The position numbers were made by a program, and so were the translations under genes. A DNA stretch of 62,211 nt, filler included, from Actinomycetota bacterium (GTDB lineage Bacteria; Actinomycetota; Actinomycetes; JAKEEW01): assembly GCA_046725875.1 (NCBI GenBank). It is 5 parts of 5 records of this genome, joined end to end, with 100 filler letters (N's around TTAATTAATTAA, not from the genome) between each part and the next. Parts side by side here need not be neighbours in the genome. Positions count along the whole stretch, not along the records: positions 24,751 to 35,582 come from JBKOZJ010000117.1; 4 more parts are not named here. One strand, written 5' to 3'. How positions within the stretch are numbered: position 1 is the first letter of the stretch; each line of letters starts with the position of its first letter. The notes beneath the pieces were generated by a model, which saw only the letters and a list, made by a program, of their open reading frames with translations, had not been told where the DNA came from and searched no databases. Of the stretch, positions 9,810 to 55,822 are shown piece after piece.

Positions 9810-10219
9810 GACGCTGGGCCACGGGTGGGCATTCCCCTCGCAATCGCAGGCTCACCCGGGCCGTTTGTGGTCCGCTACCGCGTCGTCACCGGCATCGGGT
9901 CGGACTCCAGCTGCCTATCGGTGATCCCGGATCCGTCCGGGCTCCGGTCTGCAAGGCAGGTAGTGATCACGTTCAGAGAAGCAGGGCAGCGTGATCACGA
10001 GTCGCTCGAGGGCGAGTGCGAACACTCTAGCGATCACCCTGTCGATCTAGGCACCGATCATGCATTTGTCGCCGAAATCACACCCGCTTGACGGGTCCTA
10101 CAGCGGTCGATGCGGTGAAACAATCACGCTTGTCCACCCGGGGTGACGCCGCGAGCGTGCGCTGCCCGCGAGCAGGTGAGCTGTGCGCTCAACCATGGCG
10201 CCCACCAGAGGGAGGCGAC

Positions 10220-15687: not shown

Positions 15688-15728
15688 TCGGAGGAGCGCG
15701 GCCACGTCTGCGCCGGATGTTCGGGACT

Positions 15729-16610: not shown

Positions 16611-16728
16611 ACCCGCGGGCAGCGGTGATCCGGCGACCGGGATGCCGCATTTTGCGTGCCGCTCCTAAAAGGCGGGTTGGCGGGTCTTGCCAGCGCCACA
16701 TGCGCGCCCGACCGGTTAACTGCATGTC

Positions 16729-20232: not shown

Positions 20233-20256
20233 GTCGCGAGGTCGGGTGATCCTGTC

Positions 20257-21369
20257 GTGGCGCACGTCGTTGAGGTACGTGACCTCGTCAAGGAGTTCGA
20301 TGGCGGCCGGGTTCGCGCGATCGACGACGTGAACCTCGCCACCGAGGAGGGCGAGTATCTCGTCCTCCTCGGGCCGTCCGGTTGTGGGAAAACGACGCTG
20401 CTGCGCACCGTCGCAGGCCTGGAGCAGCCCACCAACGGCGACGTGCTAATCGGTGGGCACGTGGTCACCGGGCTGCCGCCGCGGGCCCGCAAGATTGCCA
20501 TGGTGTTTCAGAGCTACGCGCTCTATCCGCACAAGACGGTCCGCGCAAACATCCTCTTCCCGCTGCGTGCGGAAGGGATGGACAAGGCTGAGCGGGCCCG
20601 CAAGGTCCAATGGGCCGCCGAGCTGCTCAGCATCGGCGACCTTCTCGACCGCCGCCCCCGCCAGTTGTCCGGCGGCGAGCGGCAGCGGGTCGCGCTGGCT
20701 CGAGCTCTGGTGCGCGAGCCGCAAGTCTTCCTGCTGGACGAACCGCTGTCGAACCTGGACGCGAAACTGCGCGCCGCCGCCCGGGACGAGCTCAAGCGCT
20801 TCCAGCAGCGGGTCGGCACCACGACGATCTATGTCACCCACGACCAAGCCGAGGCGATGGGCCTCGGTGACCGGATCGCCGTACTCGATTCGGGCCGGGT
20901 CCGGCAGGTCGGCCCGCCGACCGAGGTGTACGACGACCCTGCGGACACCTTCGTCGCGACGTTCATCGGGTCGCCGCCGATGAACCTCGTCCCGCGCGAC
21001 GGCACCCTGATCGGCTTCCGCCCGGAGCACCTGCTGCCGATCGAGGACATCGCGAGTGGTCTCGGTTGGCAGCCGGGCGCGGATCGGCCGGGCAGAACGC
21101 AGTCCGGCGATACCGACCCCGGTCCTGGGCGAGTCACGATGCCGCTCAAGGTAGACCGGGTGGAATACCTCTCCGGCGACCGGCACGTCTACGGGATGGT
21201 CAGCGAGATAGGCGCGGAGACCCGAGTCATTGCCCGGCTGCCGTCCACCGTTTCCACCCCGATCGAGGCGGGCGAGACCCACGAGTTCGCCGTCGCCGAG
21301 CAGCGGCTGCGGTTCTTCGACGCCGACGCCGGCGAGCGGACCGAGCCAGTCCGGCTGGGGAGTGCCTGA
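20257..21369 (+). CDS. ABC transporter ATP-binding protein (MalK-like)
   Basis: GPSGCGKT, VFQSYALYPH, LSGGERQR, LLDEPLSNLD, YVTHDQ. Confidence 0.95.
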   Translation: MAHVVEVRDLVKEFDGGRVRAIDDVNLATEEGEYLVLLGPSGCGKTTLLRTVAGLEQPTNGDVLIGGHVVTGLPPRARKIAMVFQSYALYPHKTVRANILFPLRAEGMDKAERARKVQWAAELLSIGDLLDRRPRQLSGGERQRVALARALVREPQVFLLDEPLSNLDAKLRAAARDELKRFQQRVGTTTIYVTHDQAEAMGLGDRIAVLDSGRVRQVGPPTEVYDDPADTFVATFIGSPPMNLVPRDGTLIGFRPEHLLPIEDIASGLGWQPGADRPGRTQSGDTDPGPGRVTMPLKVDRVEYLSGDRHVYGMVSEIGAETRVIARLPSTVSTPIEAGETHEFAVAEQRLRFFDADAGERTEPVRLGSA

Positions 21370-22271
21370 TGGCGGCCGTGGCCGGCCGGCGGCGGCTCGC
21401 CGACCGCGACGGCCTGCTCGCCTGGCTCTTCCTCATGCCGTCGGTGATCTACATCGTCGCCCTGGTCGCCGTGCCCTTCGGCTTGGCGATCGCGTTCGCC
21501 TTGTCCGACGTGACCGCCGGCGACCCGTCCTACGACTGGGTAGGGCTCCGGAACTTCCGCAGGATCTTCGACGACCCGGTCTTCTGGACCTCTCTACGCA
21601 ACACGTTCGTCTTCACCGCGATCTCGATGGCGCTCATCGTCGTGCTCGGGAAGATCCTGGCCAACATCTTGATCGCCGACATTCGAGGCAAGTGGCTGCT
21701 GCGTTTCCTCGTACTCCTGCCGTGGGTCACTCCGGTGGCGCTGTCCGCGATCGCCTGGCTGTGGATGCTGGACTCCATCTACTCACCGATCGACTGGGTG
21801 CTGCGGCAGCTCGGGCTTCTCGACGACAACATGTACTGGCTCGGCCGGCCACACCTCGCCATGGCCTCGGTTATAGCCGTCCACGTGTGGCGGCTCACCC
21901 CGTTGGCCGCCGTCATCGTGATGGCGGGGCTGGTCGCGATCCCGCGAGACATCGAGGAGGCGGCGCGGGTGGACGGCGCCGGTTTCTGGCGGCGCATGTT
22001 CGAAGTCACCATCCCGCTCACTCTGCCGATCATCGCCGTGGCGGCGCTGTTCGGTGCCATCCTCACCTTCACCGACATGACCGTCGTGTACGTACTGACC
22101 CGGGGCGGTCCCACCAACGCCACTCAGGTACTGACGAGCTGGGCGTTCATCCGTGGCATCGAAGGCGGTGACGTCGGTCAGGGTGCAGCGCTCGCGCTCT
22201 TCCTCTTCCCGTTGCTACTCGCCGCCGCGATCGCGATCCTGCGCGCGGTCCGCCGGATGGACGTGCAGTGA
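21369..22271 (+). CDS. ABC transporter permease (MalF-like)
   Basis: TM helices, EAA motif EEAARVDGA; ATG overlaps upstream stop (TGATG). Confidence 0.93.
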   Translation: MAAVAGRRRLADRDGLLAWLFLMPSVIYIVALVAVPFGLAIAFALSDVTAGDPSYDWVGLRNFRRIFDDPVFWTSLRNTFVFTAISMALIVVLGKILANILIADIRGKWLLRFLVLLPWVTPVALSAIAWLWMLDSIYSPIDWVLRQLGLLDDNMYWLGRPHLAMASVIAVHVWRLTPLAAVIVMAGLVAIPRDIEEAARVDGAGFWRRMFEVTIPLTLPIIAVAALFGAILTFTDMTVVYVLTRGGPTNATQVLTSWAFIRGIEGGDVGQGAALALFLFPLLLAAAIAILRAVRRMDVQ

Positions 22272-22325
22272 GGCACCCCACGATGGCACCCCGGCGGCCG
22301 AGCGCAGCGGATTGGAGCTAGCGCG

Positions 22326-23219
22326 GTGACGACAGGTGTATTGACCGATGCTCAGGCCGCGCGCCTGCGCGGGCGCTACGCCCGGCGGCACGTCCTAGCG
22401 CGCATCGGCGTTTACCTCGCCGCGATCGTGGCCGCACTGGTGTGCGCAGCACCGTTCCTGTGGAGCCTGATCACCGCGTTTAAGCAGAATCGGGACCTCT
22501 ACAACGTGGAGAACAACCCGTTCGTCTTCAACCGCCCCGCCGTCTCCGACCACGTGCTCTTCCTGCTGCGTGATACACCGTTCCTCACCTTCGTCTGGAA
22601 CACCGTATGGGTCGGTCTATGGGTGGTCGCGATCACCCTGGCGCTCGGCCTCCCGGCTGCGTACGCGCTGGCCCGTCTCGACCGGCCGTGGTCGGCGCCG
22701 ATGGCGATCGGGATCTTCCTCGTCTATCTCGTGCCGCCGTCGCTGCTCTTTTTGTCGCTGTCCCGGATCGTCGTCGCGCTCGGCCTGCAGGACAACAGCT
22801 GGTCGCTCGTGTTGGTCTACCCAACGATCACGATCCCGGTGTCGGTCTGGCTGCTCTTCGGCTTCCTCAAGGGCATCCCCAAGGACATTGAGGAGCAAGC
22901 GATGGTCGACGGCTACAGCCGGCTCGGTGCATTCATCCGTACGGTCGTGCCGCTCGCGTTCCCCGGCATCATCGCGGTGGTGGTTTTCGCCTTTACACTG
23001 ACGGCGAGCGAGTTCATCTACGCGCTTGCATTCATCTCGCCGAGCTCGGAAAAGGTCGTCAGCACGGGCGTGCCGACCGAGCTGGTGCGCGGCGACGTGT
23101 TTTTCTGGCAGTCCCTCCAGGCGGCCACGGTCCTGGTGGCCGTGCCGGTGGCGGCGGTGTTCACCCTCTTCCTCGACCGTTTCGTCTCCGGCTTCACGAT
23201 GGGCGCCGTCAAGGGCTGA
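22326..23219 (+). CDS. ABC transporter permease (MalG-like)
   Basis: TM helices, IPKDIEEQAMVDG, C-terminal GAVKG. Confidence 0.93.
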   Translation: MTTGVLTDAQAARLRGRYARRHVLARIGVYLAAIVAALVCAAPFLWSLITAFKQNRDLYNVENNPFVFNRPAVSDHVLFLLRDTPFLTFVWNTVWVGLWVVAITLALGLPAAYALARLDRPWSAPMAIGIFLVYLVPPSLLFLSLSRIVVALGLQDNSWSLVLVYPTITIPVSVWLLFGFLKGIPKDIEEQAMVDGYSRLGAFIRTVVPLAFPGIIAVVVFAFTLTASEFIYALAFISPSSEKVVSTGVPTELVRGDVFFWQSLQAATVLVAVPVAAVFTLFLDRFVSGFTMGAVKG

Positions 23220-23322
23220 TCCGGCGAGCCGGGTCTCCGCGGTAGCACGGGGTCCTTCCAGCAAAGATCGCTCAGCACGTGTTCGGCGGGAGCGTCGCGG
23301 TCTGTCGGCGTGGCGCGCCAGT

Positions 23323-23721
23323 ATGGATGTCGTGCTGATGCCACCGCAGCTGACCATCTCGCTGCTGCCGGACCAGTTCGTCATCTGCCGGCTGCCGGGT
23401 GATGCGGCACCGCCCCCGATCGTCGCCGGCGGTCCGTTCTACTCGGTTACTGCTAACGCCGACGAGATCTCCATCGTCTGCCGGGCGTCCGATGCTCCGA
23501 CGGGCGCGACGGTGGAGCCGGGGTGGCGGGCGTTCGTCATCGAGGGACCGCTGGACTTCAGCCTGGTTGGCGTACTGAACTCGATGCTCACACCGTTGGT
23601 GAGCGCGAAGGTGCCGGTCTTCGCCATGTCCACGTACACGACGGATTACGTGCTTGTCCGCGAGCACGACGTTCGGCCCGCCACCACCGCGCTCAAGATC
23701 GCGGGCCACACCGTTCGCTAG
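23323..23721 (+). CDS. ACT domain-containing protein (CASTOR/ACT_7 type)
   Basis: DEISIVC, GPLDFSLVGVL, FAMSTYTTDYVLV; start 23323 or 23338. Confidence 0.85.
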   Translation: MDVVLMPPQLTISLLPDQFVICRLPGDAAPPPIVAGGPFYSVTANADEISIVCRASDAPTGATVEPGWRAFVIEGPLDFSLVGVLNSMLTPLVSAKVPVFAMSTYTTDYVLVREHDVRPATTALKIAGHTVR

Positions 23722-23738
23722 GCCCGCGCCGCCAGAAC

Positions 23739-24377
23739 TCATTTGGCATCAGGCGTCCGGACATACTCGCGCTCCGGGTCGTACGCGATCGTCGGATTCC
23801 CGTCCACGAGCAGTTTGGCGCGCTCCCAGGTGCGCTGGTCTGTGATAAAGCTCGCTTCGGCTCGGACCCAGTCGTTCCAGAGACGCACCAAGTCGTGTCG
23901 CATCTCGCCACCGTTCTCCGCGATGTCACGTTCCAGCCCACGGGTAAGCCCGGCGCGAACACTGACCTCGAGCCAGATCGTGTAAGCCAGGAACGACGCC
24001 AGCTCGCGCCGTCCGGCACCGACTCCCTCGAGGATCAGTACGTCAGCGGGCTGGACGAGGACCAACTTCGCGGCCGACCGGGTGCGCCAGTCGTAGACGC
24101 TGTGCTCGCCGGATTCTCCGCGGCCCAACGGCTCGAGCACCCCGCGGGTCAGCGCGGGCGTCCAGCCGAAGAAATCCTCGTGCGACGCCAGGTCGTCGGT
24201 ATGCAGTCCCTCGACCGAGGCGCCGCCGGCTTTGACCGCGCCGGCCAGTCGTCTCGCGAAGGTCGTCTTTCCCGATCCGGCGCGCCCGTCGACAGCGACG
24301 ACGCGGGTCCGGCCGGCGGAGGGCGGCAGCCCGAGCACCCGTGCCGCGAGCACGCCGTAGGCCTCCACGACCAACAT
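23739..24377 (-). CDS. Uridine kinase-like P-loop kinase
   Basis: VAVDGRAGSGKTT, HTDD, YDW, LILEGVGA. Confidence 0.85.
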   Translation of the reverse strand: MLVVEAYGVLAARVLGLPPSAGRTRVVAVDGRAGSGKTTFARRLAGAVKAGGASVEGLHTDDLASHEDFFGWTPALTRGVLEPLGRGESGEHSVYDWRTRSAAKLVLVQPADVLILEGVGAGRRELASFLAYTIWLEVSVRAGLTRGLERDIAENGGEMRHDLVRLWNDWVRAEASFITDQRTWERAKLLVDGNPTIAYDPEREYVRTPDAK

Positions 24378-24461
24378 GGCATGGACGCTATCCGACGACG
24401 ACCGGACGCCAGGCCTGACCGGTTAGCCTGACCGGACGTTCGTCCACGATAAGGAATACCT

Positions 24462-24650
24462 GTGACCGGACTGCTTGACGGGATCGTCGTACTGGACCTC
24501 TCCCGAGCCCTTGCGGGCCCGCACGCCGCGATGATGCTCGGCGACCTCGGTGCCCGAGTGATCAAAGTCGAGTCGCCGGATGGCGACGACTCGCGACATT
24601 GGGGCCCGCCGTTCGTTGGACAGCCGGACGCTCGGGAGTCGACGTATTTC
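24462..24650 (+). CDS. CaiB/BaiF (class III) CoA transferase, 5' part; continues on reversed contig 2
   Basis: [35 protein letters not shown]; 24510-24650 equals reverse complement of 35442-35582. Confidence 0.92.
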
Positions 24651-24750
24651 NNNNNNNNNNNNNNNNNNNNNNNNNNNNNNNNNNNNNNNNNNNNTTAATT
24701 AATTAANNNNNNNNNNNNNNNNNNNNNNNNNNNNNNNNNNNNNNNNNNNN
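24651..24750. other. Artificial contig spacer
   Basis: 44 N + TTAATTAATTAA (six-frame stops) + 44 N. Confidence 0.99.
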
Positions 24751-25752
24751 ACGGCCGCCCGCGGGGCTGGATGCCATGTGGACGTGGGGTTCTGGGGCGG
24801 CGCCGTCCCCGGCAACCTAGGTCGGCTCGGTGAGCTGGTCGACGCCGGCGTATTCGGAATAAAGTGCTTCCTGGCGGACTCCGGCATCGCCGAATTTCCG
24901 CCGCTCGCGGAGACCGAGCTGGCCGCCGCGCTCCACGAGGTTGCCGGGCTCGATGCGCCGCTGTTGATCCACGCCGAGGACGCCCCAGCGCTCGCCGCGG
25001 CGCCACCGCCGCATGGGCGTTCTTACCAGACCTTCCTGGCCTCGCGGCCCCCGGAGGCTGAGGACCGCGCCGTCCAGCGTGTGGCCGCACTCGCGGCCAT
25101 CACCGGCGCGCGGGTGCACATCGTCCACCTATCGAGCGCCACTTCCCTGCCGGTGTTGGCCGACGCTCGCCGAGATGAAGTACGGATCAGCGCGGAAACG
25201 TGCCCGCATTACCTGACACTGGCGGCCGACGAGATCCCGGCCGGCGCCACCGAGTACAAGTGCTGTCCGCCGATCCGGGACGCGGCGAACCGCGATGTGC
25301 TGTGGAAGGGGCTTGCGGACGGGCTGGTCGACCTGGTCGTCTCCGACCACTCGCCGTGCCCGCCGGAGCTGAAGTCGCGCGATACGGGGGATTTCGGCGC
25401 CGCCTGGGGCGGGATTTCGTCGCTCCAGCTCGGATTGCCGGTGGTTTGGACGGCGGCCAGCCAGCGCGGGCACAGGCTGGGTGACATCGTCCACTGGATG
25501 TCGGCCGGACCGGGCGCCCTCGCCGGGCTGAGCGGCAAGGGCCGGATCGCTCCGGGCGCGGACGCGGACTTCTGCGTCTTCGCCCCGGACGAGGTGTGGC
25601 AGGTGGAAGCGGCCGCGTTGCACCACCGGCATCCGGTGACACCGTACGCAGGCCGGCAGTTGACCGGCCGGGTCCGCTCGACCTGGCTGCGCGGCGTCCC
25701 GGTTGATTTCGAGACACCGCGCGGCCGCCTCCTCGCCCGAGGACGCCCATGA
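24751..25752 (+). CDS. allB: Allantoinase, 5'-truncated by contig edge
   Basis: VDVGFWGGAVPGN, GIKCFL, HAED, HIVHLS, ETCPHYL, KCCPPIR, SDHSP; adjacent to allantoicase. Confidence 0.92.
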   Translation, partial: TAARGAGCHVDVGFWGGAVPGNLGRLGELVDAGVFGIKCFLADSGIAEFPPLAETELAAALHEVAGLDAPLLIHAEDAPALAAAPPPHGRSYQTFLASRPPEAEDRAVQRVAALAAITGARVHIVHLSSATSLPVLADARRDEVRISAETCPHYLTLAADEIPAGATEYKCCPPIRDAANRDVLWKGLADGLVDLVVSDHSPCPPELKSRDTGDFGAAWGGISSLQLGLPVVWTAASQRGHRLGDIVHWMSAGPGALAGLSGKGRIAPGADADFCVFAPDEVWQVEAAALHHRHPVTPYAGRQLTGRVRSTWLRGVPVDFETPRGRLLARGRP

Positions 25753-25780
25753 GCGGCGTGGTGGGGGGAGGACAAAGACG

Positions 25781-26839
25781 GTGAGCACCTTCGCCTGGCT
25801 TCCGGATCTCGCCTCGCGGCGGCTCGGTGGGAGCGTCGTCTACGCGACCGACGAGTTCTTTGGAGCGAAGGAGAACCTCATCAAGCCGGAGCCACCCGCC
25901 TTCACCCCGGACACGTTCGGCCCGAAGGGCCAGGTCTACGACGGCTGGGAGACGCGCCGGCACGCGCCCGACCATGACTACGCGATCGTCCGGCTCGGAA
26001 TGCCGGGCATCGTCCGCGGCATCGTTGTGGACACGGCCTACTTCACCGGCAACTATCCACCTGAGGTATCCGTCGAGGGGCTCGACGTCGGTGACCCATC
26101 GGGCCCGACTGAATCGGCGGCGGCAATACCTGCCGGATCCTCCGTCGTCAGTGTCTTGGACGGTATCTCGGCGTGGGCCCTGCGCCAGCGATCTGACTGG
26201 TTCGCGCTTGTTCCGCGGTCTTCGATGTCGGGTGATGCACGGGCCGAGTTCGAGGTAGCCGGCAAGCAGCGGGTTACGCACGTGCGGCTGTCGATCTACC
26301 CCGATGGCGGCGTGGCCAGGCTGCGCGTGCACGGCGAGGTAGTGCGGAGTCCGCTCGCCTTCGCGCTTGGGATCGGAGACCTCGCGGCGCTGGAGAACGG
26401 CGGCCTCGTGGTCGATGCCAGCGACGGGTTCTACGGTTCGCCGCAGAACCTCCTCGCTCCCGGGCCGGCGCGCACGATGGGCGAGGGTTGGGAGACTCGA
26501 CGCCGTCGAGACCGTGGGCACGACTGGGTTGTCGTACGGCTGGCTACGCGCGGAGCGATCCGCCTCGTCGAACTCGATACGACAAACTTCGTCGGGAACG
26601 CCCCAGAGTCCGCCGCCCTCCACGGCGCGGACCTGTCCACTGACAACGAGGACACCGAGCGAAATCCGGCCGGCGACGCTGCGTGGTGGATCCCGCTGCT
26701 GGCAAGCACCGCGTTGCAGCCCGACACCCGCCACCGCTTCCTCATGCCGGACGCTTCACCGGCGACCCACGTTCGGCTCGACATATTCCCCGACGGCGGT
26801 GCCTCGCGCCTCCGCCTGTGGGGTGCGCCAACGCCTTGA
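25781..26839 (+). CDS. alc: Allantoicase
   Basis: Two repeats with DGWETRR/GEGWETRRRR and IYPDGGVARLR/IFPDGGASRLR; GTG after GGAGG. Confidence 0.93.
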   Translation: MSTFAWLPDLASRRLGGSVVYATDEFFGAKENLIKPEPPAFTPDTFGPKGQVYDGWETRRHAPDHDYAIVRLGMPGIVRGIVVDTAYFTGNYPPEVSVEGLDVGDPSGPTESAAAIPAGSSVVSVLDGISAWALRQRSDWFALVPRSSMSGDARAEFEVAGKQRVTHVRLSIYPDGGVARLRVHGEVVRSPLAFALGIGDLAALENGGLVVDASDGFYGSPQNLLAPGPARTMGEGWETRRRRDRGHDWVVVRLATRGAIRLVELDTTNFVGNAPESAALHGADLSTDNEDTERNPAGDAAWWIPLLASTALQPDTRHRFLMPDASPATHVRLDIFPDGGASRLRLWGAPTP

Positions 26840-27277
26840 CCGGTGTTGCCGTCGCGCCGCGTGACAAGGCCGATTAGCGGGAGCTCGATCGGTCATCCGG
26901 GCGCGGCGATGGCGCCGGGATGACCGCCCAATTCGGCACGCCGAGACCGCTTGCGGCGTCGTATCCGGCGGACGCCTAGGCCGGCCGAGGTTGGCCACGG
27001 CTCAACCCTGCGCCGCCGGCCGCAGCGGAGCCGTACACCAAGTCGTTCCACACGACCTCGGAGGTCCGGGGATTTCCGCCGCCGAGGGTGAGCCGCGTGC
27101 CGCCGACGGGGGCCGGTCGCCCGCCCTTCGCACCGGGGCGACTATGGCGAGATAAGCGCCCTCGGGCCGGTCAGCCTGCCCGTGACGGCACCCGCGGCGG
27201 CCTGAAACGGCAGCCGCAGCAACTCGGCGAGCGCCACATCGACGGTGTCTTGGGCTAAAGAGCTCACCGCGCGACCT

Positions 27278-28315
27278 CTAGATGAAGTCGGGTTTGCCGG
27301 CCGGGAGAGTGAAGCGGAAGGCGGCGCCTCCCGACCGGGAGGAGCCGACGGTCACCGAACCGCCGTGAGCTTCGACGAGGCCCTTGACGATGTAGAGGCC
27401 GAGCCCGGTACCGCCCGCGTGGCGTCTGCTTCCCCGCCAGAATTTGCTGAAGACCCGTTCGGACAGTTCCTGCGGGATACCGACGCCTTCGTCGCTGATG
27501 GTGACCGCGACGCCGTCGTGCCAGGGCTCCAGCCCGATGTCGATGACGCCGGCGCCGTGGCGGACGGCGTTCTCCAAGAGGTTCCCGATTACCTGGTCGA
27601 TCTTGTCGGGGTCGAGCCAGGTCTCGGGGAGCTCGCCCGTCACGTCGATCGCGAACTGGTCCGCTGGGTGCCCGCCGGCGACCAGGCTTGCGAGCTGGCG
27701 CTGGACCGCCGCCGGAAGGTCGACCACCTGGCGGTGGAGCTGGAGCCGGCCGGAGTCGATGCGGGCGATGTCGAGCAGCTCGGTGATCAGCCGGGTGAGC
27801 CGGTTGGCGTCGGCGTCGACCGTCTCCAGCATGAGGCGCCGCTGGGCGTCGGTGAACCGTGACCACTTGCCGAGCAGGGTCGCCGTGAACCCCTTCACGC
27901 TGGTGAGCGGCGAGCGCAGTTCGTGCGCCACGGTGGCGATGAGCTCCGCACTGTCGCGGTCCAGCCGCTCTCTCGCGCTGTTGGAGCGCAGCGACACAAC
28001 GAGCCGGACGACCCGCCCAAGCGGCCGAGGTCGTACATATCGTGCGGCCACGAGCAGCACCCGCCCGCCTGGCATCGCCAGGGCGCGTTCGGGCTGGCTC
28101 GTCCGGGTCGGCAGCCCGGAGTACGGCCTGGTGCACCTCCACCACGACCGGCCATGGTCGTCGAAGAGCGGGAGTACCTCCTCGATGTGCCGACCGATCG
28201 CGTCGGGAACGGCACACCCGACAAGCCGCGCCGCCGGGCGGTTCATCATGATGATTCGGCCGTCCTCGTCGGCGACGACCACACCGTCAGGGAGTTCCTC
28301 CAGGCCGACCTGCAC
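27278..28315 (-). CDS. PAS-domain sensor histidine kinase (no adjacent response regulator)
   Basis: AHELRSPLT H-box, NLLENAVRH, DEGVG, GGTGLGL; GTG 28315 after GGGAGG. Confidence 0.92.
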   Translation of the reverse strand: MQVGLEELPDGVVVADEDGRIIMMNRPAARLVGCAVPDAIGRHIEEVLPLFDDHGRSWWRCTRPYSGLPTRTSQPERALAMPGGRVLLVAARYVRPRPLGRVVRLVVSLRSNSARERLDRDSAELIATVAHELRSPLTSVKGFTATLLGKWSRFTDAQRRLMLETVDADANRLTRLITELLDIARIDSGRLQLHRQVVDLPAAVQRQLASLVAGGHPADQFAIDVTGELPETWLDPDKIDQVIGNLLENAVRHGAGVIDIGLEPWHDGVAVTISDEGVGIPQELSERVFSKFWRGSRRHAGGTGLGLYIVKGLVEAHGGSVTVGSSRSGGAAFRFTLPAGKPDFI

Positions 28316-28392
28316 GCGGCACCTCCCGCGGGGGCGGCGGCACAGGCGTGGACGGCCCGGCCGACTCCCCCGTACACGGACGGCGACCCAGA

Positions 28393-29301
28393 CTAGTGCC
28401 CTCCACGGGGCGACGTCTGCTGGTGAGCTGCTCGCTGTGATCGAGCCGATGCATAGAGACAGACCGCGGCGGCGGCGGCAAGGTTGAGGCTTTCGGCCCG
28501 GCCGTGGATCGGGATGCGCACCACCGCATCGGCGAGGGCAAGCGTCTCCGCCGGCAAGCCCCAGGCCTCGTTGCCGAGCACCCATGCGGTCGGCGCTGCC
28601 AGGTCGCCGGCGTCGAGGACGGCGTCCAGGTCACGCTCCCCGCGCCCGTCCGCTGCGAGAACCTGGATCCCGGCTCGCCGAAGCGTGGCCACCGCGCTCG
28701 TCGGCGGGACGCCCACAACGACCGGGAGGTGAAAGATGCTTCCCGCCGTCGCGCGCACGCATTTGGGGTTGTACGGGTCCACCGATCCTTCGGTGAAGAC
28801 GACTGCGTCGGCGCCGGCGGCGTCCGCAGCCCGGATGATGGTCCCGGCATTGCCGGGGTCGCGCACCTTTGCGAGTACGGCAACCAGCCGGGTGGCCGGC
28901 CCGATGACAGCATCGAGCGGCCGATCGACGAAACGGCAGACCGCAACGATTCCCTGCGGCGTAACGGTGCTCGTAACCGAGGCGAGGACGTCGCCGCTGG
29001 TCGGATGTACAACGGCGCCGGCCTTGCGGACCGTCTCGACGAGATCGTGGTGGCGACTGGCCCCTTCGGCAGTGACGAAGATTTTCTCGATCACGCCGGG
29101 CTCCGCCGCCGCCTCCCGGACAGCTTGCGGGCCCTCGGCGAGGAACCGGCGCGCACGGTCTCGGAACGCCCGCTTGAGCAGCCGACGGGCGGCCAGCACG
29201 CGTGGCGAGCGCGCCGAGGTGAGCTCGGCGCCCGGGAAACCGAACGCCCCGGTGCGGCGGCGGGCCGCCTTGTCTCGCGGGGCTGGTGGCAGGTCTGTCA
29301 C
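28393..29301 (-). CDS. TrmH/SpoU family RNA methyltransferase
   Basis: RDPGNAGTIIRAADA, LGNEAWG, ESLNLA; follows rplT. Confidence 0.93.
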   Translation of the reverse strand: MTDLPPAPRDKAARRRTGAFGFPGAELTSARSPRVLAARRLLKRAFRDRARRFLAEGPQAVREAAAEPGVIEKIFVTAEGASRHHDLVETVRKAGAVVHPTSGDVLASVTSTVTPQGIVAVCRFVDRPLDAVIGPATRLVAVLAKVRDPGNAGTIIRAADAAGADAVVFTEGSVDPYNPKCVRATAGSIFHLPVVVGVPPTSAVATLRRAGIQVLAADGRGERDLDAVLDAGDLAAPTAWVLGNEAWGLPAETLALADAVVRIPIHGRAESLNLAAAAAVCLYASARSQRAAHQQTSPRGGH

Positions 29302-29329
29302 CGGCGATGGAACCTTGCTCAGAGCGTTA

Positions 29330-29710
29330 TCAGGCTGCCGGTGCGTTGCGATCGGCGGGCAGCGCGCCTTTGGCGAGCTCGGTGAGCGCGGTGAACGCGG
29401 CCGCGTCGGTGACAGCGAGGTCGGCGAGCATCCGACGGTCGACCTCGACTCGGGCGGCCTTGAGGCCCTGGATGAATCGGTTGTAGGTCATGCCGTTTTG
29501 CCGGGCCGCCGCGTTGATGCGCTGGATCCACAGTTGACGGAAGTCGCCTTTGCGGTCCTTACGATCGCGGTAGGCATAGACGAGCGAGTGAGTGACCTGT
29601 TCCTTCGCCTTCCGGTAGAGGCGGGACCGCTGCCCGCGATAGCCGCTGGCCCGCTCGAGGGTGTCCCGGCGTTTCTTGTGGGCGTTGACCGCCCGCTTCA
29701 CGCGTGCCAC
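29330..29710 (-). CDS. rplT: 50S ribosomal protein L20
   Basis: [15 protein letters not shown]...[16 protein letters not shown]. Confidence 0.99.
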
Positions 29711-29751
29711 GAAAACTCCTTCGTACGGGTGTCTTGTCTCAGCAGGTACGG

Positions 29752-29946
29752 TCAGCGGCCGAGCAGCCGCCGCGCCGTCTTGCGGTCGGCGGCCGACATC
29801 TCGACCTCATTCCAGAGGCGCCGGGTACGTCTCGACGGCTTGTGCTCGAAGTTGTGCCGGCGGTTGGCGCGGGCGCGCAGGATCTTCCCGGCTCCGGTGA
29901 TCTTGAACCGCTTGCTAGCACCGCTGTGCGTCTTGTTCTTCGGCAT
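29752..29946 (-). CDS. rpmI: 50S ribosomal protein L35
   Basis: [18 protein letters not shown]; 64 aa. Confidence 0.98.
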
Positions 29947-30092
29947 GGCGCCGTCGTACTCCTCATGGTCGGGCACTCCGCCCCCGGTGAGGCGGCGTGT
30001 CGTCTGCACCGCCGGTCACCGGAGGAACCGTGGCGGTCTCCGGCGTCTCCGGGCGGTTTGGCGTGGGCACCCAGTCGGGTTCCCACGAAGTC

Positions 30093-30689
30093 TCAGGTAG
30101 CGGACTTCTCCGCAACGTCTCTCGGTGCGGCCTGGCCGCGGCTGCGGCGAGCCCTGGCCTCGGCCATTGCCTCGGTCTTCTTCTTGTGTGGGCCAATGAC
30201 CATGATCATGTTACGGCCGTCCTGCTTGGGTGCCGACTCGACGTAGCCGAGCTCCTGGACGTCCTCGGCGAGGCGCTGCAGCAGCCGGAAGCCGAGCTCG
30301 GGCCGGGACTGCTCGCGGCCACGGAACATGATAGTGATCTTGACCTTGTCGCCCTGCTTCAGAAACCGCTCGACGTGACCCTTCTTGGTCTCGTAATCGT
30401 GCGGGTCGATCTTCGGCCGGAGCTTCATCTCCTTGATGACGGTCTGCGCCTGGTTCTTGCGCGCCTCCCGGGCCTTGACCGCGGACTCGTACTTGAACTT
30501 TCCGAAGTCCATGAGCTTGGCCACGGGCGGGCGGGCCATCGGCGCCACCTCGACCAGGTCGAGGTCCGCCTCCTGGGCGAGCCGCAGGGCGTCCTCGATC
30601 CGGACGATGCCAACCTGCTCGCCGTTGGGACCAACGAGCCGTACCTCGGGGACGCGGATCCGGTCGTTGACACGGGGCTCGATGCTGAT
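30093..30689 (-). CDS. infC: Translation initiation factor IF-3 (probable ATC start)
   Basis: [52 protein letters not shown] at 30689. Confidence 0.97.
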
Positions 30690-30769
30690 GGGGCCTCCTC
30701 GGGAAGTAATAGGTCTTGGGGCGCTCTTGGATGAGCGCACGGTGGAGTCTAGATGTGACCTCGGCAACG

Positions 30770-30803
30770 AAAAAGGCTTCCGTGCCGACGCATCACGGAA
30801 GCC
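30770..30803 (-). terminator. Intrinsic terminator/attenuator in the infC leader
   Basis: 10-bp perfect stem GGCTTCCGTG/CACGGAAGCC, 9-nt loop, then TTTTT on minus strand, ~80 nt before infC. Confidence 0.8.
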
Positions 30804-31089
30804 ACCAACGCACCCGCCGAACCGGGAATTCCCCCAACGGCCCTCGTCGCCCGCCGTCCGGCGGACTTCGATCTCGTGACCCGACGACCGTTCTTGGCCG
30901 ATGCGGGTGGGAGGTGGTCCTCCACTTTGCGAGCCCGGCGAACCGGGCTAGCCGGTACCAAGAATAGCAGTCGAGCATCGCTCCAACCCAATCGTCGGGT
31001 CGAAGATCGGTTTGCTCGTAGCTCGACGAGCACCATGAGCCTACGACCCTCGCCCGCGGTCGGATTTCTGCATGGAAGAGAGTTGACGG

Positions 31090-31890
31090 TCAGCCGGTGG
31101 TGGATGGGAGTCCGCTCGGCCAGGCCCGGATGCCGCCGCCAGGTGGCGTCGGAACCACGGCGATCTGGACGCCGTGATCGACACGGGATCGCATGATCGG
31201 ATCGGCCGCCAGTACAGAGGCGATCTCCTCGGCCGATTTGCGCAGCTCGTCCCGACCGCTGCCGTCTCGGGCCACGAGGCTGATCACGAGGTCGGTATCC
31301 TGCGGCTGCCCTGGATGTATGTACACGTCGGCAAATGCGTCAGCCTTCCCTGCGGTCGCCTTCCGTACAGCGTCGACCACCTGGGGATCGGCGGCGGGCG
31401 AAACCAGAGAACGGCCGTCGGCCAGCGCCCAGAGCACCGAACCGGCAAGCTCCACGGTGATCGGGCCGGACGGATCGACCACGACGAGATCGGCGCCCTC
31501 GGCAAGAGCACCCGCGCACACCCGTTGCGCCTCGGCCGGGACGGGGCGGGCATCGGCCTTCCAGCGGGCCAGGGCCTCGACCGATGTGAAGGCCGGCAAC
31601 GCTGTCCTGCCGTCAGGCGCCTTGATAAGGATCAGGGAGATCTCGGCTTCCTTCTCCCGGTGCGAGTCGCGTGCTTTCGCACGTGTCGCGTCGGACGGCG
31701 ATGCGGGCGGCTCGTCCTGGAGCGTCGTCACCACCGGGACGATCAACCGGCAGCCGCCCAGCGCGGCGACGAGCTCTGATGTGCCGATGCCGCCGAGCTG
31801 GAACGCGGCAAGCGCGCGACCGACGCCCGGATCCGCCGAACCGTCGTCATTCGAGAACCCCTGGCTGGGAATCGCGTTGCCGTGCATCAC
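31090..31890 (-). CDS. SseB family protein
   Basis: DDGSADP, RLIVPV, DGRTALPAFTS..ALARW; typical actinomycete neighbour of infC. Confidence 0.85.
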   Translation of the reverse strand: MMHGNAIPSQGFSNDDGSADPGVGRALAAFQLGGIGTSELVAALGGCRLIVPVVTTLQDEPPASPSDATRAKARDSHREKEAEISLILIKAPDGRTALPAFTSVEALARWKADARPVPAEAQRVCAGALAEGADLVVVDPSGPITVELAGSVLWALADGRSLVSPAADPQVVDAVRKATAGKADAFADVYIHPGQPQDTDLVISLVARDGSGRDELRKSAEEIASVLAADPIMRSRVDHGVQIAVVPTPPGGGIRAWPSGLPSTTG

Positions 31891-32033
31891 CGGAACCCTA
31901 CGCGCGAGTCGGTTCGATCAGGACCGCCAACTGCTGCTGATCACCGGTTTGACTGCTAGGCTCCCGCACCTCCGCGATTTCGGCCTTCATGGCAGGGTAG
32001 ACCGAGGTCGACCCCGCAGGAGGGGTGATTGTC

Positions 32034-32174
32034 ATGACCGAACCGTTCCCGCCACCACAGCCACCGGTACCCGACCCGATCCCGCCGAATCCGGAACCAG
32101 AGCCCGCGCCGCACCCAGGCGAGCCGGAGCCAACCCCACCGCGACCGCCTGTTCCCGATCCCGACTTGATCTAG
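32034..32174 (+). CDS. Proline-rich micro-protein (46 aa, 23 Pro)
   Basis: MTEPFPPPQPPVPDPIPPNPEPEPAPHPGEPEPTPPRPPVPDPDLI; RBS AGGAGGGG; sits in otherwise intergenic gap. Confidence 0.6.
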   Translation: MTEPFPPPQPPVPDPIPPNPEPEPAPHPGEPEPTPPRPPVPDPDLI

Positions 32175-32216
32175 AAGTCCCTCGCGACCGCGCTTGGGCC
32201 GGTTGCCCGGCGCGCA

Positions 32217-33320
32217 CTAGCCGAGGTCGACGATCGCCGCCACCGGGCCGCCGCCGGACGGGCCTTGATGCACGGCGGCCACCGAGACGAAGACGGCCGG
32301 ATCGCCGGTAACCGACGCGGCGACGCCGCCCACACAGCCCTTGATCTGCCGGTGCCAATGCACATCCGAGTCGTCGAGCATGATGTTGCGGCGGCCGCGG
32401 ACCCGGCCGGTTGGGTCCGCCTCGCACTTGAGGAAGACGTTCACCAAGCGACCCCCCAAGTCCGACGGGTGCGGTCGCTCGGGCAGGTCGAGCCCGGCCA
32501 CCCGGATAGCGGCCCAAATGCCATCCGCATCGATGGCGTCGCGCATCACCGAGTGCCCGACCCGGAAGCGCCCGCCAAGGCCGCGTGCGTTGCCGACCAC
32601 CACGATCTGGGCCCGATCGAGCTCCACTCCGGACGAGCAGGACGCGACGGACGAGTAGAGCGAAAGGTCGCGGTGAATCTGTTCGGCCGACGGCATCGGG
32701 ATTTCCCCAAGGGCCACCCCGATGCCGAGCGCGGTCGTCGAATTGGACACGTCCATGGACTTGAGGGTGTCAGTTGTCCAAACGTCCTGACCGCGGCAGC
32801 GCGCGTCGGCGATGGTCTCCATCGTGAGCAACGGTGTCTTGGTCTGTACATAATGGACGTCGGCGGGGTCGTCGATCCCGGCGACCTTCATTGCATCGCG
32901 GACACCGAGGGCAACCTTCTCCACCATCGCGGGGCGGCCAATGTCCTCGGGCAGGATCGGCGCGCTCATCGCGACCCCCACCGACAGTCGTGGCTCCTCG
33001 GTCGGTTTGTACCGACCCTCGGGCGCATGCGCGAACACCGTTGCATGTGGAGAGAGCACGCCGTCCGTGCCGCCCGACCACACCAGCGGCACCTGCTTGA
33101 CCTCGGCGGCCGACCGGCTTCCCCGTTCGACCAGGACCTCGCGGAACGCGCGGTCCGCGAGGATCCGCGTGTAGTCGTTCACGCCGCCGTTGCCCTCGGT
33201 CTTCCCGACCACCGCGAGGACGTCGTCAGCCGTGAAAATACCGTCGTCGAGGCATTGGGCAAGCCCGGACGCGTCGGTGACGCTCTCGATGGCGACCTTG
33301 CGCACCTCGATCGGCATCAT
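32217..33320 (-). CDS. Ring-opening amidohydrolase, barbiturase/cyanuric acid hydrolase (AtzD, Toblerone fold) family
   Basis: [56 protein letters not shown]. Confidence 0.95.
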
Positions 33321-33353
33321 CCTCGCTCGCTCTCCTCGGCCGCCCGAGCTTTG

Positions 33354-34313
33354 CTAGTTCGCAGCAGGCCTAGCGGCCGGTTCCGCAGTCACCACCGTGC
33401 CGTAGCGGCCGGTGACCGCCTCGGCGATGTGGTCGAGCGACGTGACCACGGCGAACCGGCCGCCCGCCTCGACGAACCGCAAAGCGGCTTCCACTTTGGG
33501 TCCCATGCTTCCGCTCGCAAAGTGTTCCCCCGCGGCGAGCTCGCGCAATGCAGCCGGGTCGATCCGACCAATCGGCCGGGCATGGTCGGTGCCGAAGCCG
33601 CGCTGAACGTGGTCAACGTCGGTCGCGATCACCAGTGCGTCCGCGGCGAGTGTACGGGCAAGCAAGGCCGCGGCGAGGTCCTTGTCGATGACGGCTTCGA
33701 CGCCCTGAAGGGCGCCGCCGGCCCCTCGCACGACCGGGATACCGCCCCCTCCGGCCGCCACGACGATATAGCGGGCGCTGATGAGCGCCCGGGCGGCCGG
33801 TGCATCGAGGATCTCCAACGGCTCCGGAGACGGCACAACCCGCCGCCACCCGCGGCTTCCGCGGTCGTTCCAGTGCTGTCCGCGCTCGATCATGGGCCGC
33901 GCTTCGGTCTCCGGCAGGAACCGCCCGATGGGCTTCGTCGGTGCAGCGAAAGCCGGGTCGCTCGGATCAACCCGGGTGCGCGTGACGAGTACGGCCACGC
34001 GCCGGCGAAGATCGCGGTCGGCGAGCTGCTTCTCGAGCGCGTTGAGGATGAGAAGGCCGATCGTGCCTTGGGTCTGAGCGCCGCACCAGTCCAGTGTCAC
34101 CGGCGGGACGACATGCGCGGCCAGCTCATTCTTCACAAGAAGGTTGCCGACCTGCGGCCCATTGCCGTGGGTCAGCACCACCTCGACACCTTGCGCGACG
34201 AGATCGGCGACCCGCTTCATGGCCACCTCGACCGCTGCCTTCTGCGCGGCCTGAGTAGCGCTGCCGTCTGGGCCGGTCATCGCATTTCCACCGAGCGCGA
34301 TCAGGACCCGCAC
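33354..34313 (-). CDS. arcC: Carbamate kinase
   Basis: ALGGNA, THGNGPQVG, PTKPIG, RRVVPSPEP, GGGGIPV, AVIDKD, GSMGPKV. Confidence 0.95.
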   Translation of the reverse strand: MRVLIALGGNAMTGPDGSATQAAQKAAVEVAMKRVADLVAQGVEVVLTHGNGPQVGNLLVKNELAAHVVPPVTLDWCGAQTQGTIGLLILNALEKQLADRDLRRRVAVLVTRTRVDPSDPAFAAPTKPIGRFLPETEARPMIERGQHWNDRGSRGWRRVVPSPEPLEILDAPAARALISARYIVVAAGGGGIPVVRGAGGALQGVEAVIDKDLAAALLARTLAADALVIATDVDHVQRGFGTDHARPIGRIDPAALRELAAGEHFASGSMGPKVEAALRFVEAGGRFAVVTSLDHIAEAVTGRYGTVVTAEPAARPAAN

Positions 34314-34460
34314 GGCGCCGACTCTAAGCGGCATCACCCGAGCCGAGTATGGGCACACACTGCCCAGCCCGGCCGGTCTCTTTGGCATCGCCTGCCCAGG
34401 CACCCGCTCTAAGTGGCCGGTCGCCACGGCTGTTCGGGGGCTCCTGGCGCTAACCGGCGC

Positions 34461-35582
34461 CTACTGATCGACGGCGTCGAGCCAGGCGCGAATGGCAGGG
34501 CCGTCCTCGTCCAGGACGGGCGGCGCGTCGTGAGCGAGATCGATCTCGGCTCCGTCGGTGGCGAAGAACCGCAGCGGTGGTCCCGGCAGAGTCACCGTGC
34601 CAAGCGTGGAATGCGATACGTCGACGAGCAGGCGTTGCGCGCGGGTCTGCTCCCACTCGTACACCCGGTCGAGGGTGCGCACCTCGCCGGCCGGCACGCC
34701 GATCTCGGCCAGTCGAGGCAGCCACCACGCGAGTGGATGCTTGCCGAACGAGGCATCGAGCCGGGCGACCAGCTCCTCGCGGTGGTGCACGCGATCGGGG
34801 TTGCGGGCGAAGCGCGGGTCGTCCGGGTCGAGCCCGGCGAGCGGCGCGAACCGTCGCCACAGTGCTTCGCTGCCAACCGAGATCTGAATGATGCCGTCGG
34901 CGCAGGTGAACGAGCCGTACGGGCAGATCGACGGGTGATGGTTGCCCTGAGCCACGGGGACCTCGCCGGCCACGGTGTAGCGGGTGCCTTGGAAGGCGTG
35001 GACACCGACGATCGCCGCGAGCAGGGACGTCCGCACGACGCGGCCGTGGCCGGTACGATCCCGCTCGCGCAAGGCGGCGAGGACACCGTAGGCGCCGTAC
35101 ATGCCGGCAAGAAGGTCGCCCACCGGCACGCCCACTCGCATCGGCTGGTTCGGCGCTGGGCCGGTCAGGCTCATCAGCCCGGCCTCACCCTGCGCGATCT
35201 GGTCGTAGCCGGCTCGGCCACCCTCCGGCCCGTCGTGCCCGAAACCCGTGATGGACAGAATGACCAACCGCGGATTCAGCTCGTGCAAGCGAGCCGGCGG
35301 GAAGCCGAGACGGTCCAGCACACCGGTGCGGAAGTTCTCCACCAACACATCGGCGTGCCGGACCAGACGGGCGAGCAGGGCGGCGCCGTCGGCCGACTTC
35401 AGATCGAGCGCGATGGACTCCTTGTTCCGATTGCAGGACAGGAAATACGTCGACTCCCGAGCGTCCGGCTGTCCAACGAACGGCGGGCCCCAATGTCGCG
35501 AGTCGTCGCCATCCGGCGACTCGACTTTGATCACTCGGGCACCGAGGTCGCCGAGCATCATCGCGGCGTGCGGGCCCGCAAG
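34461..35582 (-). CDS. CaiB/BaiF (class III) CoA transferase, 3' part; 5' end is on contig 1
   Basis: NRNKESIALDLK, VENFR, SITGFG, GYDQIAQ; joined gene is 389 aa. Confidence 0.93.
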   Translation of the reverse strand, partial: LAGPHAAMMLGDLGARVIKVESPDGDDSRHWGPPFVGQPDARESTYFLSCNRNKESIALDLKSADGAALLARLVRHADVLVENFRTGVLDRLGFPPARLHELNPRLVILSITGFGHDGPEGGRAGYDQIAQGEAGLMSLTGPAPNQPMRVGVPVGDLLAGMYGAYGVLAALRERDRTGHGRVVRTSLLAAIVGVHAFQGTRYTVAGEVPVAQGNHHPSICPYGSFTCADGIIQISVGSEALWRRFAPLAGLDPDDPRFARNPDRVHHREELVARLDASFGKHPLAWWLPRLAEIGVPAGEVRTLDRVYEWEQTRAQRLLVDVSHSTLGTVTLPGPPLRFFATDGAEIDLAHDAPPVLDEDGPAIRAWLDAVDQ

Positions 35583-35682
35583 NNNNNNNNNNNNNNNNNN
35601 NNNNNNNNNNNNNNNNNNNNNNNNNNTTAATTAATTAANNNNNNNNNNNNNNNNNNNNNNNNNNNNNNNNNNNNNNNNNNNN
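35583..35682. other. Artificial contig spacer
   Basis: N44-TTAATTAATTAA-N44. Confidence 0.99.
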
Positions 35683-49610: not shown

Positions 49611-49710
49611 NNNNNNNNNNNNNNNNNNNNNNNNNNNNNNNNNNNNNNNNNNNNTTAATTAATTAANNNNNNNNNNNNNNNNNNNNNNNNNNNNNNNNNN
49701 NNNNNNNNNN
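49611..49710. other. Artificial contig spacer
   Basis: N44-TTAATTAATTAA-N44. Confidence 0.99.
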
Positions 49711-55722: not shown

Positions 55723-55822
55723 NNNNNNNNNNNNNNNNNNNNNNNNNNNNNNNNNNNNNNNNNNNNTTAATTAATTAANNNNNNNNNNNNNNNNNNNNNN
55801 NNNNNNNNNNNNNNNNNNNNNN
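55723..55822. other. Artificial contig spacer
   Basis: N44-TTAATTAATTAA-N44. Confidence 0.99.

Follow-up and report, generated by a model that had tools for sequence, protein, structure and literature searches.

Three co-oriented genes at positions 32217-35582 of the DNA analyzed here (the window, a stretch of 62,211 nucleotides from the genome of an Actinomycetota bacterium, assembly GCA_046725875.1) encode, in the order of the minus strand, a family III coenzyme A (CoA)-transferase, a carbamate kinase, and a ring-opening amidohydrolase of the barbiturase type. The CoA-transferase gene (34461-35582) is cut by a contig end, the kinase gene (33354-34313) encodes 319 amino acids from a GTG at 34313, and the hydrolase gene (32217-33320) encodes 367 amino acids. 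The coordinates, shared orientation, and intergenic gaps of 147 and 33 nucleotides given in the initial annotation of this locus are borne out by the open reading frames with this kinase start, while an alternative in-frame GTG upstream, at 34427, would make both gaps 33 nucleotides. Scans for a promoter and a terminator of the trio found nothing, a result that is uninformative in high-GC DNA. The trio is most likely the downstream end of a catabolic gene set for the oxidative pyrimidine pathway (uracil to barbiturate) that is split over two loci of this genome.

The trio is the end of a longer operon

The window is made of five contigs chained by non-biological linkers of the form N44-TTAATTAATTAA-N44 (24651-24750, 35583-35682, 49611-49710, and 55723-55822); since these separate contigs, genes that flank a linker are not neighbors, and reading across them is unsafe. 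The trio is physically linked only with 24751-35582, a 10.8-kb contig at whose end it lies (C117; our handles C, G, and L stand for contigs, genomes, and loci), in a source genome of 197 contigs that is 89% complete. The piece at 1-24650 (contig C115) ends in 141 nucleotides that exactly match the reverse-complemented end of the piece at 24751-35582, the type of overlap that de Bruijn assemblers leave. About 20 N-terminal residues of the CoA-transferase are cut off at the contig end, and the start of the gene is found at 24462-24650 on the plus strand, the last 141 nucleotides of which are the reverse complement of 35442-35582. Starting at the GTG at 24462, the frame runs uninterrupted through the join for 392 codons and is 71% identical to residues 5-387 of a 390-residue orthologue (L023), and CoA-transferase orthologues match the ends of both C115 and C117 in tblastn searches. 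The overlap and the continuous CoA-transferase frame together give an operon of HyuA, HyuB, an ATP-binding cassette (ABC) importer, CoA-transferase, carbamate kinase, and barbiturase. In full, the order across the join is an AfsR/SARP-like regulator, HyuA, a gap of about 1 kb, HyuB, a four-gene ABC importer, two small genes, the CoA-transferase, the kinase, and the hydrolase, after which come SseB, infC, and further housekeeping genes. The trio closes a larger gene set that is widely conserved.

Identity of the hydrolase, the kinase, and the CoA-transferase

The hydrolase matches its family over its full length (Amido_AtzD_TrzD, PF09663, 496 bits over residues 5-365; TIGR02714, 536 bits against a cut-off of 153), and its class was assigned from scores against solved structures. 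It reaches 585 bits against the barbiturase of Rhodococcus erythropolis (PDB 5hwe), with 267 of 364 aligned positions identical by hand count (about 73%), versus 185-317 bits against six solved cyanuric acid hydrolase (CAH) or TrzD sequences. On these scores, and in agreement with an initial description of the enzyme as barbiturase-like overall, we class it as barbiturase-type rather than as a CAH. In alignments to the solved structures the Ser-Lys dyad is kept, with its Lys in VQTKTPLLT and its Ser in SCSSGVE; Ser226 and Lys156 (Azorhizobium numbering) are given in PMC4051656 as the sole invariant Ser-Lys dyad. The second substrate-binding Arg of CAHs, in the 'SRG' motif, aligns with an Asn in both the hydrolase and 5hwe, and this Asn is invariant across 197 barbiturase-type matches (some genomes counted twice). 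The residue of barbiturase at that position is called a glutamine in an excerpt of the same paper (PMC4051656), whereas the HMMER alignment made here shows Asn.

Public names of close homologues (at least 79% identity) are split between barbiturase and cyanuric acid amidohydrolase, and the hydrolase itself also passes the NCBIfam equivalog NF052395, 'cyanuric acid amidohydrolase' (479 bits, cut-off 360). The substrate had at first been left open on account of local differences from known barbiturases. That reason is not supported: SVAAVHQGP is the commonest variant among the barbiturase-type matches (150 of 197), xDTLKSMD is also common, and both are ordinary variation within the clade.

The kinase, an AA_kinase family member (Pfam), passes NF009007 (305 bits, cut-off 266), falls just below the cut-off of the equivalog TIGR00746 (339 against 358 bits), and aligns with the solved carbamate kinase 1b7b over residues 2-309 (248 bits). 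Genes of the ornithine or aspartate carbamoyltransferase type are absent from the cluster, and the genome's two sit on other contigs. The CoA-transferase is assigned to PF02515 (365 bits, E = 5e-109, profile positions 20-364) with no named-enzyme specificity; seven NCBIfam models, including those for succinate--glutarate, mesaconate, and oxalate, all score far below their cut-offs (at best 275 bits against 750, for NF052585).

Conserved gene neighborhoods

We collected one set of 80 loci with the hydrolase (74-87% identity, mostly Streptosporangiales) and a second, taxonomically broader set of 80 loci with HyuB. The kinase gene is directly upstream of the hydrolase gene in 57 of the 80 hydrolase-centered loci, and within 10 kb these loci hold a CoA-transferase (24 loci), a fused AccD-AccA carboxyltransferase (22), a C-N hydrolase (27), and HyuB (12). 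Of the 80 HyuB-centered loci, 31 contain the hydrolase gene, and in 26 of them the kinase gene immediately precedes it; 8 of the 80 repeat the trio exactly, and 6 more do so with one carboxyltransferase gene inserted. The survey of the trio's neighborhood that the initial annotation called for therefore finds it conserved, in an arrangement far beyond chance. The consensus of the HyuB-centered loci runs PucR, CoxMSLG, C-N hydrolase, HyuAB, optionally NmrA, optionally a CoA-transferase with or without the carboxyltransferase, kinase, and barbiturase. A class I/II aminotransferase gene found upstream of the kinase in Streptosporangiales was considered as a pathway member and rejected, as it matches a housekeeping equivalog and has a conserved aro-gene neighborhood.

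A genome from another class of the phylum (G067, loci L092 and L105) has a single co-directional cluster of barbiturase, Xan_ur_permease, carbamate kinase, AllH, AllF, AllG, molybdenum hydroxylase, HyuA, HyuB, CoA-transferase, and nucleoside phosphorylase genes, with a divergent PucR gene upstream of it, and Actinomadura macra has AllF, AllG, C-N hydrolase, CoA-transferase, carboxyltransferase, kinase, and barbiturase in one row.

An AllH-AllF-AllG set at a second locus

The window holds no carbamoyltransferase, as had been stated initially; for the genome as a whole the statement fails, as a search for AllFGH-type enzymes found homologues on contig C114. There, AllH, AllF, and AllG are consecutive (PF11392 AllH, 81 bits; FdrA-like NF004760, 377 bits, below the cut-off of 433; PF06545 AllG, 312 bits), and the full order is CoxE, XdhC, and MobA, then AllG, AllF, and AllH pointing one way and PucR, CoxM, CoxS, CoxL, CoxG, and a C-N hydrolase pointing the other. 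Genes for a molybdenum hydroxylase of the CoxMSL type, for PucR, and for a C-N hydrolase thus accompany the AllHFG genes.

Another AllF/AllG/kinase set of the same genome, divergent and 42-47% identical to the barbiturase-linked one, is on contig C13 (L103, G000:C13:12000-31000, and G000:C13:32947-34314); its kinase shares an operon with an FdrA-like gene, and 11 kb away lies the genome's second AllG, 42-44% identical to the barbiturase-linked AllG. The presence of two divergent sets in one genome fits two specificities.

Co-occurrence was counted in a sample of 400 genomes of the phylum, of which 16 have a barbiturase-type gene (69-75% identity) and 4 a CAH-like gene (42-44%). An AllG at least 59% identical to the C114 protein occurs in all 16 barbiturase-type genomes, compared with one partial match (G136) among the other 384; one of the 16 (G268) is unpublished, and if it is left out AllG occurs in 15 of 15. 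In 13 of the 16, the best kinase match lies within 13 kb of the barbiturase gene. All ten actinomycete genomes that were reached from the hydrolase loci have AllG as well. Twelve AllG regions were fetched from these actinomycetes, and in 10 of them AllG stands with AllF beside PucR; CoxMS(L) lies beyond PucR in 8 of the 10, and a Hyu or barbiturase operon is near in the other two.

Two side observations concern the reach of these genes. At L145 (G086:C6:100000-119999), a CAH-like homologue (44% identity) adjoins PucR-like, AllF, and AllG genes, which suggests that AllFGH-type enzymes may serve triazine-type ring products too. In G254 (L144, L301, and L302), a kinase (67% identity), a HyuB (82%), and an AllG (58%) are present and barbiturase was not found in the assembly (88% complete, 780 contigs, 7% contamination); either the assembly lacks the barbiturase gene or the ring is opened by some other enzyme.

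HyuA and HyuB track AllG

Both subunits of a hydantoinase/oxoprolinase-type enzyme are encoded on the plus strand upstream of the join: HyuA, the ATP-binding subunit, at 13483-15687 (PF01968, PF05378, and PF19278) and HyuB at 16729-18606 (PF02538, 457 bits). The nearest NCBIfam models for the two are those of caprolactamase (CapA for HyuA), which score 485 and 198 bits where 1000 are required, and carboxylase-type models score below these. HyuB orthologues of at least 74% identity are present in all 15 barbiturase genomes tested and in 6 of 35 other, hand-picked genomes, these six being the very ones that carry an AllG of 55-58% identity; in the other 29 controls no HyuB match exceeds 37%. Five genomes in which HyuAB appeared to be 'stand-alone' all have barbiturase elsewhere, and the genes next to HyuAB in these genomes (for GGDEF proteins, a beta-lactamase-family protein, and, in Embleya, gamma-glutamyltranspeptidase) gave no consistent clue to a substrate. 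Judged by its families and distribution, HyuAB is probably an ATP-dependent pair of the lactamase type that belongs to the pathway and tracks AllFGH.

The same genes are also found in a barbiturase-free family of clusters (L297, L299, and L300, in G291, G358, and G265) with the order CoxG, amidase, a PF04199 cyclase-family hydrolase, CoxMSL, HyuA, HyuB, AllF, and AllG. One of these clusters, L299, carries a Xan_ur_permease and has an AMP-binding ligase at the place where the CoA-transferase would be expected.

The CoA-transferase probably acts on malonate

Of the 16 barbiturase genomes, 15 have an orthologue of the CoA-transferase (E 1e-90 or better), as do 18 sampled genomes without barbiturase. 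The two closest orthologues in the latter group (66-68% identity) lie in operons in which a GntR gene is divergent from genes for MatC, the CoA-transferase, and a carboxyltransferase (L130 and L131, in G009 and G139). MatC is a malonate carrier family, and the carboxyltransferase is an AccD-AccA fusion that weakly resembles subunits of malonate decarboxylase. The barbiturase cluster of G097 is without a transferase; in that genome the transferase and carboxyltransferase genes are paired about 1.4 Mb from the cluster, next to genes for a GntP permease and an amidase. Because its closest orthologues outside barbiturase genomes sit in MatC/GntR/carboxyltransferase operons, the CoA-transferase most likely acts on malonate and not, as first proposed, on a ring-opened ureido acid. 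In their own right, the L130 and L131 operons look like an undescribed malonate utilization operon in which the MatB synthetase and the MatA decarboxylase are replaced.

Handling of urea

A urease alpha subunit was not found in the source genome (at 89% completeness) or in five closed barbiturase genomes, and neither urea carboxylase nor allophanate hydrolase nor biuret hydrolase scores above cut-off in the source genome. The lack of matches to urea-degrading genes fits a route in which urea is not released, as a weak argument.

A proposed route from uracil to carbamoyl phosphate

With slightly better than even confidence, we propose that uracil is oxidized to barbiturate, that barbiturate is opened to ureidomalonate, that ureidomalonate is phosphorolysed to malonamate and carbamoyl phosphate, and that the kinase uses the latter to make ATP. 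Every substrate in this scheme is a prediction; what the analysis shows is which genes these are, that the two contigs join, and that the genes are conserved and occur together. The CoxMSL-type molybdenum hydroxylase of C114 would oxidize uracil, and perhaps thymine, to barbiturate, and the barbiturase (32217-33320) would open the ring to give ureidomalonate. The AllH-AllF-AllG paralogue of C114 would then phosphorolyse ureidomalonate, an N-acylurea, to malonamate and carbamoyl phosphate, much as E. coli AllFGH acts on oxalurate, the homologue that is one carbon shorter, and the carbamate kinase (33354-34313) would convert carbamoyl phosphate to ATP, NH3, and CO2. The C-N hydrolase (an amidase in some relatives) would turn malonamate into malonate, the CoA-transferase (24462-24650 joined to 35582-34461) would form malonyl-CoA, and in many relatives the fused AccD-AccA carboxyltransferase would decarboxylate malonyl-CoA to acetyl-CoA. 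Overall, no urea would be released.

The central idea of the initial annotation, retention of the carbamoyl group as carbamoyl phosphate on which the kinase then acts, has strong support from gene context, in that the AllHFG paralogue accompanies barbiturase in 16 of 16 genomes and adjoins kinase and barbiturase in another class; the means by which it was thought to happen, a CoA-activated acid, is the part that we abandon. A reading in which HyuAB and the kinase together replace a carbamoyltransferase was dropped as the main explanation, AllHFG homologues having been found in the same genomes. A more inclusive version of the route, plausible although we would rate it somewhat short of even, is a urea-free pathway in which AllHFG is a 'malonamate carbamoyltransferase', the ATP made by the kinase repays an obligate ATP step of HyuAB, and the CoA-transferase and carboxyltransferase form a CoA-based malonate decarboxylase cycle.

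Several points weigh against the proposed route. Each of its steps is a prediction, and ureidomalonate as the substrate of AllHFG is inferred only from chemical analogy and gene context. The ureidomalonase of R. erythropolis was reportedly shown by Soong et al. in 2001/2002 to split ureidomalonate to urea and malonate, which would mean that a hydrolytic route exists in at least one organism; the best 80 loci returned for a Mycobacteriales hydrolase query include no Rhodococcus. The C-N hydrolase or amidase that is conserved in the clusters could itself be a ureidomalonase. Carbamate kinase is a common enzyme (167 of the 400 sampled genomes), and 23 of the 80 hydrolase-centered loci, mostly from Nonomuraea, are without an adjacent kinase. 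The source genome (89% complete) yielded no carboxyltransferase. The trio's own contig carries, at its opposite end (24751-26839), genes for a partial allantoinase-like amidohydrolase and an allantoicase, and since allantoicase releases urea, the absence of urease is weak evidence. HyuB tracks AllG in 21 of 21 genomes versus 0 of 29 hand-picked controls, and the route gives HyuAB no step. Finally, related genomes are not independent, so the co-occurrence figures are counts and not tests.

Alternative explanations

The classical hydrolytic route offers one alternative, in which the C-N hydrolase or amidase is a ureidomalonase that yields urea and malonate, the CoA-transferase and carboxyltransferase consume the malonate, and the kinase and AllHFG are only co-regulated, serving some other substrate of the PucR regulon such as oxalurate from purines. 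We consider this unlikely, if well short of negligible. Urea and malonate are said to be the products in R. erythropolis, a candidate ureidomalonase is at hand in the conserved C-N hydrolase or amidase, PucR is a family of purine-catabolism regulators, the allantoinase and allantoicase genes share the trio's contig, and E. coli AllFGH acts on oxalurate (PMC11326118, in excerpt). However, apart from one partial match among the 384 other genomes, AllG of the type with at least 59% identity occurs only where barbiturase does (16 of 16), and the source genome keeps its second, divergent AllF/AllG/kinase set besides. The kinase lies immediately beside barbiturase in two gene orders and two classes, urease was not found in any of the barbiturase genomes checked (6 of 6), and in the source genome no urea amidolyase scores above cut-off.

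A second alternative gives HyuAB the role that the proposed route lacks: HyuAB would spend ATP on opening or cleaving a stable cyclic ureide (5-methylbarbiturate from thymine, or barbiturate) alongside AllFGH, and the kinase would repay that ATP with no net gain. We judge this rather improbable as the whole explanation, and it is compatible with the proposed route rather than exclusive of it. N-methylhydantoinase is an ATP-dependent member of the hydantoinase A/B family, other known members of which likewise hydrolyse cyclic amides or ureides with ATP, and caprolactamase is the nearest model here. The distribution of HyuB at 74% identity or more (15 of 15 barbiturase genomes and the 6 with an AllG of 55-58%, against 0 of 29 further controls), the barbiturase elsewhere in 5 of 5 'stand-alone' HyuAB genomes, the many loci in which the kinase directly follows HyuB, and the order CoxMSL, HyuA, HyuB, AllF, AllG in the barbiturase-free family all point the same way. 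On the other side, the substrate of HyuAB is conjecture, the HyuB controls were hand-picked, and the barbiturase-free clusters carry a PF04199 cyclase-family hydrolase as a possible ring opener, so HyuAB is not simply a substitute for barbiturase.

That the CoA-transferase activates the ring-opened ureido acid, with the carbamoyl group of a ureidomalonyl-CoA then passed to phosphate, is very improbable even though here, as in 8 of the 80 HyuB-centered loci, the transferase gene immediately precedes those of the kinase and barbiturase, and family III enzymes accept dicarboxylate-like acids, since its orthologues occur in 18 sampled barbiturase-free genomes, the two closest sit with MatC, GntR, and the same carboxyltransferase, the G097 barbiturase cluster does without it, and a thioester on the sole carboxylate would give carbamoyl transfer no evident help.

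Other genes of the locus

The remaining genes of the locus all lie on the plus strand. Directly upstream of HyuA lies a large AfsR/SARP-type regulator (10088-13468; AAA, TPR, Trans_reg_C, and BTAD in Pfam). HyuA and HyuB, which abut or overlap in relatives, are set apart here by about 1 kb (15688-16728) that is treated as non-coding, since stops interrupt every one of its six frames and it has no relatives. Pfam matches identify the ABC importer (18814-23219) as an SBP_bac_1 binding protein (18814-20232), an ATPase (20257-21369), and two permeases (about 21400-22271, and 22326-23219). As the binding protein has no relatives in the 80 HyuB-centered loci, the importer looks like a lineage-specific insertion; a Xan_ur_permease like those of related clusters was not found in the source genome. 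Two small genes follow, an ACT_7/A9CJY8-like one within 23026-23721 (Pfam; no NCBIfam match) and an open reading frame from 23523 or 23742 to 24431 with no Pfam or NCBIfam match, for which an Atlas search with 23742-24431 gave nothing above 0.80. A relative of a gene in 23026-24431, 33% identical, lies just downstream of barbiturase in G097.

Significance and comparison with known systems

The oxidative pyrimidine pathway, from uracil through barbiturate to ureidomalonate, has been known biochemically since the 1950s. To our knowledge, the genes for uracil dehydrogenase and ureidomalonase are unassigned, and only barbiturase has a gene. A full-text literature search, with subscription journals outside its coverage, found no gene assignment for either enzyme and no paper linking barbiturase with carbamate kinase, AllFGH, or HyuAB, in keeping with the initial view of the gene set as undescribed. 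The locus and its relatives offer a full candidate gene set for the pathway, in most carriers of which the ureido group may be conserved as carbamoyl phosphate and ATP, with no release of urea, an outcome that would suit bacteria without urease. If this is true, the unassigned steps would have genes, and the textbook end of the pathway, urea and malonate, would be replaced in most carriers; the recently identified AllFGH type of carbamoyltransferase would gain a wider substrate range, and a malonate CoA-transferase/decarboxylase pair would be defined. Database names would also need correction, as close homologues are labeled cyanuric acid amidohydrolase in many records and the NCBI equivalog would give the hydrolase described here that name too.

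The hydrolase shares family PF09663 with the cyanuric acid hydrolases AtzD and TrzD and passes their equivalog NF052395 (479 against 360), but it differs from them in its scores (at most 317 bits, versus 585 for barbiturase) and in having Asn at the position of the CAH Arg, and the source genome differs from those with the biuret/allophanate pathway in having no biuret or allophanate hydrolase above cut-off. The rhizobial matABC operon for malonate encodes a malonyl-CoA decarboxylase, a malonyl-CoA synthetase, and the carrier MatC. The CoA-transferase and carboxyltransferase orthologues behind MatC and GntR in two genomes suggest the same logic of import, CoA activation, and decarboxylation, although with a family III CoA-transferase instead of the synthetase and a fused AccD-AccA carboxyltransferase that would replace MatA.

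The closest parallel to the proposed phosphorolysis is in E. coli, where AllFGH is a three-gene oxamic transcarbamylase that uses phosphate to split oxalurate into oxamate and carbamoyl phosphate, the latter then going to the carbamate kinase AllK (PMC11326118, in excerpt), and the two act together in the anaerobic branch of allantoin degradation (PMC11326118 and PMC9843812). The same three families (FdrA-like, PF06545 AllG, and PF11392 AllH) and a carbamate kinase recur here, and ureidomalonate, the proposed substrate, differs from oxalurate, likewise an N-acylurea, by one additional CH2. The hosts checked here resemble E. coli also in being without urease, an argument made for E. coli in the same source (PMC11326118, in excerpt). 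In contrast to the E. coli genes, those described here are tied to barbiturase and a molybdenum hydroxylase and not to allantoin genes.

The oxidative pyrimidine pathway of R. erythropolis JCM 3132 (uracil/thymine dehydrogenase; barbiturase, EC 3.5.2.1; ureidomalonase, EC 3.5.1.95) resembles the system described here in its hydrolase, with about 73% identity, and in that the hydrolase of the relatives is accompanied by a nucleobase permease and a molybdenum hydroxylase fit to make barbiturate. That pathway, which ends in urea and malonate, is described without a carbamate kinase, an AllHFG-type carbamoyltransferase, HyuAB, or a malonate-type CoA-transferase, whereas here all four are conserved partners of the barbiturase.

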